From an uncultured Candidatus Saccharibacteria bacterium (GTDB taxonomy: Bacteria > Patescibacteriota > Minisyncoccia > Phycocordibacterales > UBA918), in NCBI GenBank assembly GCA_964350985.1, contig CAYGLK010000003.1, positions 21,811 through 85,810 of the forward strand: 64,000 bases of DNA, written 5' to 3'. Of the stretch, positions 41,982 through 42,860 are shown piece by piece. The notes below the pieces were generated by a model that worked only from the letters and a program-made list of their open reading frames with translations, did not search any database and was not told the origin of the DNA. The translations under genes were made by a program, and so were the position numbers. Every line of letters begins with the position of its first letter. The first letter of the stretch is position 1.

Positions 41982-42428
41982 TTAATGAGAATATACACTA
42001 AGTTTTGTATCTATATAAACCACATGAAAAACTGTATCTTCCCCTCTGTAACCAATCAGTCGTCCCTTATCGCCTGAAAAGTAAAAGGAAAGAAAATCTC
42101 TAACGTCTGGACTGATAGTAGCTGGCACCCCGACACCAATAGAGTCACGAGTAATCTTTTCTGTACCAGAACCTTTTCTGTGTGCTAACTGTATTTGTTC
42201 CCAAGTATTTTGAGATATAACTTCCAACTTTTTCAATAAACCTTTTACATAACGCGGGTTTGACTCATCGCAACATTTACCAAGATTGTAGTTTCTATGA
42301 ACATGTTTAAAACAAAATATAGGAGTCCCTGTATCACCTGAGTTAGCATACTGAAAATTGGATAGTCCTACCCTTCCTGCATGCATATTAACTTCAGGAC
42401 TTTTAATACGCTTTTTACCCTTACCCAT
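41982..42428 (-). CDS. Unknown 148-aa protein, candidate toxin partner of the upstream Panacea-domain protein
   Basis: Starts 3 nt after the DUF4065 gene stop on the same strand; no recognisable fold from sequence. Confidence 0.45.
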   Translation of the reverse strand: MGKGKKRIKSPEVNMHAGRVGLSNFQYANSGDTGTPIFCFKHVHRNYNLGKCCDESNPRYVKGLLKKLEVISQNTWEQIQLAHRKGSGTEKITRDSIGVGVPATISPDVRDFLSFYFSGDKGRLIGYRGEDTVFHVVYIDTKLSVYSH

Positions 42429-42431
42429 ACC

Positions 42432-42860
42432 CTATTCAGTTACAAGTGTCTTGAAGTAAGACTTCATCACAGAATGATTTATTACATTGTTCCTACCAGT
42501 ATTCTGCCAAGGAGTCTCGTTATGTGTCATGTCTCGCAATTTCCAAGCTGAAAACTGACCATAAACATTCCATATATTTTCAATCAACTCCCTCTCTTGT
42601 TTCGTAAGTGTAGACGGACAAGTCATTACTTTAATTGGAGTAGAAGCATTGTCTCTATATTCATTATAAACCTCGCGAACCACAGGACCGTGTTCCCAAG
42701 CTAAAACCTCCTCTTTGAACAAAGGTTTTCCATAGATTGCCAAGTTAAAACCTTGAGCGTAGTAGAGTAATTTCTGTAGCTTTAAGTTAGTCACAACATC
42801 ACCTACATCAGGGTTAGAAAGACACAAAAATGCCTTAGCGATTGTTTTTGCTGACTTCAT
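42432..42860 (-). CDS. Panacea-domain (DUF4065, SocA-like) putative antitoxin
   Basis: NLKLQKLLYYAQGFNLAIYGKPLF..E.LAWEHGPVVREVY closely matches the DUF4065/Panacea pattern. Confidence 0.6.
   Translation of the reverse strand: MKSAKTIAKAFLCLSNPDVGDVVTNLKLQKLLYYAQGFNLAIYGKPLFKEEVLAWEHGPVVREVYNEYRDNASTPIKVMTCPSTLTKQERELIENIWNVYGQFSAWKLRDMTHNETPWQNTGRNNVINHSVMKSYFKTLVTE

Follow-up and report, generated by a model that had tools for sequence, protein, structure and literature searches.

Organization of the panA-panT locus

The DNA analyzed in this study (hereafter the window) is a stretch of 64,000 nucleotides (nt) of contig CAYGLK010000003.1 (assembly GCA_964350985.1), assigned to an uncultured bacterium of the Patescibacteriota. 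Our subject is a pair of adjacent genes within it, panA and panT, which encode a Panacea-domain protein and a small partner of 148 amino acids (aa). The pair and the signals around it are as follows.

42860..42432, minus strand: panA, a 142-aa stand-alone Panacea/DUF4065 protein and putative antitoxin (PF13274, phrog_1281 and homology to the PanA of phage Emek)
42428..41982, minus strand: panT, 148 aa, PanT cluster T1, predicted from sequence and model to be a putative mRNA endonuclease toxin
42429..42431, minus strand: spacer GGT of 3 nt between the panA stop codon (TAG) and the panT ATG, read from the sequence
42877..42869, minus strand: candidate extended -10 element TGcTACAAT, its last base 8 nt before the panA ATG, read from the sequence

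A first-pass annotation of this DNA had described the two open reading frames (ORFs) as an antitoxin-like DUF4065/Panacea gene and an unrecognizable partner, together a candidate novel toxin-antitoxin (TA) system. Both ORFs were found at the coordinates that it gave, with the peptides that it quoted and with the 3-nt gap (TAG, GGT, ATG); the strand, which it did not state, is minus. Its Panacea assignment was also correct, as residues 28-119 of the panA product matched PF13274 (SocA_Panacea) over the full profile (1-113) with 88 bits against a cut-off of 25.7 (E=1e-24). In addition, panA matched phrog_1281 (E=7e-47), and its product was 44% identical to the PanA of phage Emek, YP_006560565.1 (pairwise E=9e-42). 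The N-terminal helix-turn-helix, PAD1 and ZBD domains were all absent, and the protein is thus a stand-alone PanA.

A single copy of the pair is present in the window, and its 3-nt spacer suggests one operon with coupled translation. TGcTACAAT was the sole candidate promoter element seen upstream of panA; if it is used, the mRNA leader would be almost nil. A consensus promoter scan, which needs a -35 element, did not return it, and the promoter and terminator scans yielded no more sites than shuffled sequence.

Assignment of the partner to PanT cluster T1

Searches of Pfam, PADLOC and PDB sequences with the 148-aa PanT gave no match, and no PADLOC model fits either PanA or PanT. On the other hand, tblastn of PanT against a phage collection identified a region of Salmonella phage vB_SemP_Emek (15218-15634; 32% identity, 100% coverage, E=1e-13). 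This region is the coding sequence YP_006560566.1 (pairwise E=6e-22), which directly follows the 'DUF4065 domain-containing protein' YP_006560565.1, and the two are listed as a pT1/T1 pair in Dataset S1 of Kurata et al. (2022, PNAS 119:e2102212119; PMC8832971). Thus, the partner that had been regarded as unrecognizable and possibly novel is a homolog of a published T1 PanT, and the window pair is very probably a T1 PanAT pair. The T1 rows of Dataset S1 carry the labels 'noNTD' and 'A|T' (PMC8832971), and the window pair has this architecture, with a PanA lacking an N-terminal domain and PanT directly after it.

T1 is one of the two largest Panacea-associated toxin clusters: pT1 accounted for 217 of 1,268 predicted PanAT pairs, exceeded only by the MqsR-like pT2 (218), and T1 members were reported from Mollicutes, Firmicutes, Proteobacteria including Legionella, Bacteroidetes, Cyanobacteria and phages (PMC8832971). 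The predicted mode of action given for the tested T1 members was 'mRNase' (SI Table S1, PMC8832971). The T1 accessions that we searched for were absent from the NetFlax supplements (PMC10440598).

Both proteins of the window pair are homologous to those of the Emek pair, PanT over its full length, and in both pairs the antitoxin gene comes first. It also shares with the T1 pairs of Emek and Clostridium cadaveris (WP_074844973.1/WP_074844970.1) a gap of a few nt, a stand-alone PanA and a location on a mobile element. In contrast with these pairs, its host probably belongs to the Paceibacteria within the candidate phyla radiation (CPR), its carrier is a serine-recombinase island, and its PanT subfamily has Y at position 116 in place of the usual R.

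Beyond the Emek match, PanT aligned along its entire length with phrog_8366 (E=8e-26), a family of phage proteins. Its match to NCBIfam NF046006 ('MAG6450 family') was weak (15.1 bits against a cut-off of 40, E=0.026), and 96 of 145 PanT relatives matched this model at E values up to 0.1, with a best value of 2.6e-12. By sequence, PanT is therefore related to the NF046006 family but falls outside it under the NCBI criterion, and both phrog_8366 and NF046006 are without an assigned function. A word-indexed search found only seven close relatives of PanT, and an exhaustive profile search recovered 851 clusters at 50% identity (E<=1e-3), nearly all of about 140 aa. The PanT family is thus a large and genuine one, though it has no name. 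An alignment of 145 sequences was used for conservation, profiles and structure prediction, and none of its members matched any Pfam family. A profile search of the PDB with the same alignment gave one marginal match, to a lysozyme repeat (E=0.0035), which we took as chance.

Predicted fold and conserved residues of PanT

Using the 145-sequence alignment, AlphaFold2 produced a model of PanT with a predicted local distance difference test (pLDDT) score of 87.8 and a predicted template modeling (pTM) score of 0.77, all five models having pLDDT values of 86-88; with just seven PanT sequences the prediction was unusable (pLDDT 40). The N-terminus (approximately residues 1-33) was basic, disordered and of low confidence. 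It is followed in the model by a strand (37-39), three helices (49-54, 58-72 and 76-81) and four further strands (90-93, 111-117, 122-128 and 133-140). This predicted structure has the compact alpha/beta arrangement of the RelE/ParE toxin superfamily, so that the partner, for which no fold could be assigned in the first-pass annotation, now has a predicted one.

Comparison of the model with known structures by Foldseek, which that annotation had named as a check, came out mixed: the top-ranked PDB matches were HigB, YoeB and RelE, but none was significant, the best E values being 0.23 in the PDB and 0.05 in a viral library. The Pfam and NCBIfam models of RelE, ParE, YoeB, HigB and YafQ matched neither the window PanT nor its 145 relatives. 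Alignment of the PanT profile by hhalign with an Escherichia coli YoeB sequence (99% identical to a YoeB database entry) and with an alignment of 120 YoeB sequences gave probabilities below 1%, which is a weak negative since the YoeB alignment was shallow (effective number of sequences, Neff, 1.4). Thus, the relation between PanT and RelE/ParE holds at the level of the predicted fold only. Pairing of Panacea with this superfamily has precedent, as PanT clusters T14, T28, T59 and T76 are explicitly RelE/ParE-like (PMC8832971).

Several PanT positions were highly conserved among the 145 sequences. E90, which lies in a G-x-E-K-I motif at the start of the second strand, was present in 143, and the C-terminal Y-x-H was nearly invariant (Y146 in 142, H148 in 134). 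R128 was found in 115 sequences, with K in 16 more, D140 in 128 and H135 in 104. From their order along the secondary structure, E90, R128, H135, D140, Y146 and H148 are plausible equivalents of a ribonuclease (RNase) site. A conserved Glu near the second strand together with a C-terminal His and Tyr recalls YoeB (E46, R65, H83, Y84), and the same pattern also recalls HigB (H54, D90, Y91, H92), whereas we know of no such residues in ParE-type gyrase poisons. An RNase is therefore the favored activity, although the residue mapping is one that we infer, and we put the chance of an RNase-toxin mechanism at about even.

The Cys and His residues that the first-pass annotation had pointed out in PanT do not form a conserved metal-binding motif. 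C39 was Cys in 89 and Ser in 50 of the aligned sequences, and C52 was Cys in 115; C53 was not conserved, and H42 and H44 were His in only 58 and 43, respectively. A zinc-binding or metal-ligand role of this stretch was rejected, as no conserved set of three or four ligands could be observed.

Like RelE, YoeB, HigB and YafQ, PanT is small, basic and encoded after its antitoxin, and it has conserved acidic, basic and aromatic residues that include a C-terminal His and Tyr. It differs from these toxins in having no detectable sequence similarity to them, and its model adds about 35 disordered N-terminal residues and a short third helix. Its candidate catalytic residues could not be mapped one by one onto those of RelE-type toxins, and its antitoxin is a Panacea protein instead of RelB, YefM or HigA.

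Conservation and distribution of the pair

In each of the 18 loci examined, the PanT homolog immediately followed a Panacea gene of the same strand, and the gaps between panA and panT in the 17 other loci ranged from -4 to +16 nt. These loci included seven close relatives, four distant representatives (P0020, P0050, P0100 and P0150; 26-35% identical) and three phage records, in which PanA was confirmed by phmmer. The flanking genes were wholly different between loci, and included ribosomal genes, NUDIX, acetyltransferases, tyrosine integrases, Fic and MmeI restriction-modification. The proposal of a TA-like two-gene module was borne out in this respect, as the pair is kept across loci with unrelated flanks. 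The phage pairs were found in accessory, non-structural regions of temperate phages, e.g., beside mnt/arc/ant of the P22-like Emek.

The closest relative, L003, is a Candidatus Paceibacteria metagenome-assembled genome (MAG). Against this 82%-identical ortholog locus, panA showed 47 synonymous and 8 non-synonymous codon differences, and panT showed 52 and 22, respectively. This excess of synonymous differences indicates that both are real genes under purifying selection. The PanA orthologs of L003 (4840-5268) and L004 (4519-4947) carry an in-frame TAA at codon 30 (NLKLQ*LLYYAQ), inside the conserved NLKLQKLLYYAQ motif, and gene callers give a truncated PanA of 103 aa. The neighboring PanT is intact in both and 85% identical to the window PanT. 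L004 comes from a separate Logan assembly. In L003 the pair also adjoins an MmeI-type restriction-modification gene.

With regard to distribution, a profile scan of the genome collection using the seven-sequence alignment found one locus, in a Candidatus Paceibacteria MAG, and the pair was present in 34 of 5,426 complete genomes. Some annotations of these loci are incomplete. At the RefSeq prophage locus L019 of E. coli (NZ_CP148423.1), the T1 PanT ORF (1256-1678) is unannotated; the record shows only a 'Panacea domain-containing protein' followed by a gap of about 440 nt without features. Among the RefSeq E. coli matches listed, seven of eight records show the Panacea feature alone under the match. 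The PanT gene call of 126 aa in L002 is probably short, as an ATG at 5938 would give 147 aa and start 1 nt after PanA.

Genomic island and neighboring genes

The pair lies in a recombinase-linked island, as the first-pass annotation had reported. The features that bound the island or adjoin the pair are given below.

33811-33885, plus strand: tRNA-His (ARAGORN), at the recombinase end of the island
35481..33853, minus strand: large serine recombinase with Pfam Resolvase, Recombinase and Zn_ribbon_recom domains
43411..42942, minus strand: frameshifted copy of a 157-aa gene with a PD...ExK-like motif, located by tblastn of the intact L003 protein

The island begins at tRNA-His and the adjacent serine recombinase, beyond which lie the housekeeping genes for YibE/F, MscL and ribonucleotide reductase, and the GC content of 33886-43520 is 37.5% compared with approximately 40% in the flanks. 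A related island with a homologous recombinase occurs in L003. In L002 (5488-10466), PanA-PanT and the 157-aa gene are accompanied by a 680-nt recombinase remnant (75% identical to window 34485..33808) beside YibE/F. L002 thus represents the same insertion site, at which the island has decayed and the pair has been retained.

The ORF at 43046-43411 had been described as a small PD-(D/E)xK protein. It consists of the first 104 codons of the 157-aa gene, whose frame shifts near 43100: tblastn of the intact protein (L003:3317-3790) aligned with window frame -1 at 43411..43100 and then with frame -3 at 43100..42942 (92% identical). An identical truncated gene call of 121 aa is present in L001. Matches of the 157-aa gene product to nuclease families were all sub-threshold (E of about 0.03), and the gene was absent beside the pair in L005-L009 and L014-L018. 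The 157-aa gene is not part of the module. The 77-aa ORF (41969..41736), the 602-aa protein (41691..39883) and the 157-aa gene were each rejected as a third module gene, being unconserved beside the pair outside the closest relatives.

In L003, a direct repeat of about 116 nt (3674-3789 and 4652-4767), which is the 3' end of the 157-aa gene, surrounds an insert of about 860 nt. This insert sits between the 157-aa gene and PanA, contains two small ORFs (one 241-aa ORF in L004) and is not present in the window.

Other observations concern the wider surroundings. The tRNA-His gene overlaps the 3' end of the recombinase ORF, and exact copies of its last 15 nt (CCCGGTAGCCGCCC-like) are present at 46376-46390 and 54572-54586, where they close an identical 91-nt repeat (46300-46390 and 54496-54586). 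These copies could be remnants of att sites that mark a single island or two in tandem, or they may match by chance within a dispersed repeat; we found no tyrosine integrase between 43.5 and 55 kb of the window. Intergenic repeats of about 50-120 nt (46125-46197, 48511-48592, 49402-49450, 50753-50874, 53481-53552 and 55889-55963), which also occur in L005, look like a dispersed repeat family, and ARAGORN called none of them tRNA. The stretch between the 157-aa gene and a DUF305 gene contains a perfect hairpin (43477-43520) with a 20-bp stem and a 4-nt loop, which may terminate transcription in both directions or mark the boundary of an element.

Next to the island, the cluster at 43530-46109 contains two DUF305 proteins (44147..43530 and 45663-46109) and small ORFs (45361..44576 and 45638..45318). 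It looks like a set of metal (copper) homeostasis genes, the DUF305 protein at 44147..43530 having a Pfam match of E=4.5e-41 and the rest being judged by eye. A 298-aa Fic/DOC-family protein, a toxin-type domain (E=2e-19), is encoded at 49797-50693 on the minus strand, approximately 7 kb from the pair, and in L018 a Fic gene adjoins the PanAT pair. Just upstream of the recombinase gene, a 90-aa ORF (35474-35746, minus strand) matched CTD5 of ABC-3C systems at 20.9 bits (E=2.9e-4), which is below the cut-off of 25.

Proposed mechanism and alternative explanations

We propose, with a probability of roughly 0.6, that the pair is a T1-class PanAT module in which PanT, a protein of predicted RelE/ParE fold, would act as an mRNA endonuclease held in check by PanA. 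The two genes would be co-transcribed from a promoter upstream of panA, and the short spacer would couple their translation. PanA would bind PanT directly and hold it inactive by type II-like neutralization. Such binding is probable because PanA is a bare Panacea domain, and there are precedents: PanA-PanT pairs form complexes in pull-downs (PMC8832971), and stand-alone Panacea antitoxins neutralize toxins directly, as shown by mutagenesis in two cases (PMC10440598). Upon loss of PanA, or a response of PanA to a trigger such as phage infection, the freed PanT may cleave mRNA and block translation, and it would probably do so on ribosomes in the manner of RelE, YoeB and HigB. Its active site would comprise E90, Y146 and H148 with R128, H135 and D140. 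RNase activity, ribosome dependence, direct neutralization by PanA and toxicity are all properties that we infer.

Several observations weigh against this proposal. Of three T1 PanTs tested in E. coli, one was toxic, that of C. cadaveris, and it was not neutralized by its own PanA; the PanTs of E. coli MOD1 and phage Emek were non-toxic (PMC8832971). T1 as a whole still lacks a pair validated as a genuine TA system. In the parts of the publication available to us, no basis for the 'mRNase' label of T1 could be found, and a keyword search of Dataset S1 gave no HHpred line for a T1 representative (PMC8832971). Position 116, which is R in 127 of the 145 relatives, is Y in the window PanT and 12 others, so that the window subfamily departs here from the family-typical residue. 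Finally, a nonsense PanA beside an intact PanT, as seen in L003 and L004, is unexpected for a constitutively active toxin; it agrees with a latent, sensor-controlled effector no less than with a classical addiction module.

Such a conditional effector is the main rival, and we consider it possible though clearly less probable than the proposed module. The T1 PanT would be harmless alone in its host, and its activation would depend on PanA perceiving a signal, e.g., phage infection. In this view PanA would regulate or activate PanT and would not be an antidote required for survival, and mobile elements would carry the pair as a module for abortive infection or superinfection exclusion. The toxicity data, with two of three tested proteins non-toxic and the third unrescued by its PanA, agree with it, and so do the nonsense allele, the accessory location of the pair in temperate phages such as Emek and the MmeI-type neighbor in L003. 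A sensory role for Panacea is also favored by the NetFlax authors (PMC10440598), although in the same study two stand-alone Panacea proteins neutralized their toxins directly. Moreover, non-toxicity in E. coli leaves toxicity in the native host possible, as noted by Kurata et al. (PMC8832971), the nonsense allele may have arisen recently, be a variant within the population or reflect an error, and PADLOC, as mentioned above, has no model for either protein. A more specific version, in which T1 PanTs are latent RelE-fold RNases switched on by PanA upon a trigger and not classical toxins under constant neutralization, seems rather unlikely to us. It would nevertheless explain the non-toxic majority of the tested T1 proteins, the toxic member that was not rescued and the lineage with an intact PanT and a nonsense PanA.

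The remaining explanations have low probabilities. PanT might use the RelE/ParE fold to inhibit DNA gyrase, as ParE does, with no RNA cleavage; this is improbable, since the near-invariant E90, Y146 and H148 point to catalysis, and T1 was labeled 'mRNase' by those who described it (PMC8832971). It is slightly less probable still that PanA acts as in SocAB, the type VI TA system of Caulobacter crescentus, as a proteolytic adaptor delivering PanT to ClpXP. SocA is the founding member of the Panacea proteins, the antitoxins of both systems have the Panacea/DUF4065 domain, and PanA partially matched the SocA_antitoxin equivalog (NCBIfam NF047745, E=5e-19). However, the score of 68.7 bits was far under the cut-off of 190, and PanA is thus not SocA itself. 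Furthermore, PanT is unrelated to SocB, and tested PanA-PanT pairs form stable complexes typical of type II systems (PMC8832971), so that PanA probably works by direct binding and not by ClpXP-mediated degradation. A new-fold toxin founding a new TA family, as first suggested for the 148-aa protein, was in keeping with its lack of Pfam, PADLOC and PDB-sequence matches. The homology to a published T1 PanT and the predicted RelE/ParE fold have already refuted it, the phrog_8366 match and the relation to NF046006 also speak against it, and we regard it as hardly tenable.

Implications for T1 PanAT systems

As a discovery the pair has little weight, as it adds one more member, probably borne by a CPR bacterium, to a class published in 2022. 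The predicted RelE/ParE fold is explicit fold-level support for T1, a cluster that is still without a Pfam model. Two natural observations made here bear on how T1 systems are regulated: L003 and L004 combine a nonsense PanA with an intact PanT, and in L002 the pair has outlasted the island that carried it. If T1 PanTs are indeed latent RNases, the pair would be a defense module in an ultra-small CPR genome, and the name 'antitoxin' would misdescribe its mechanism.
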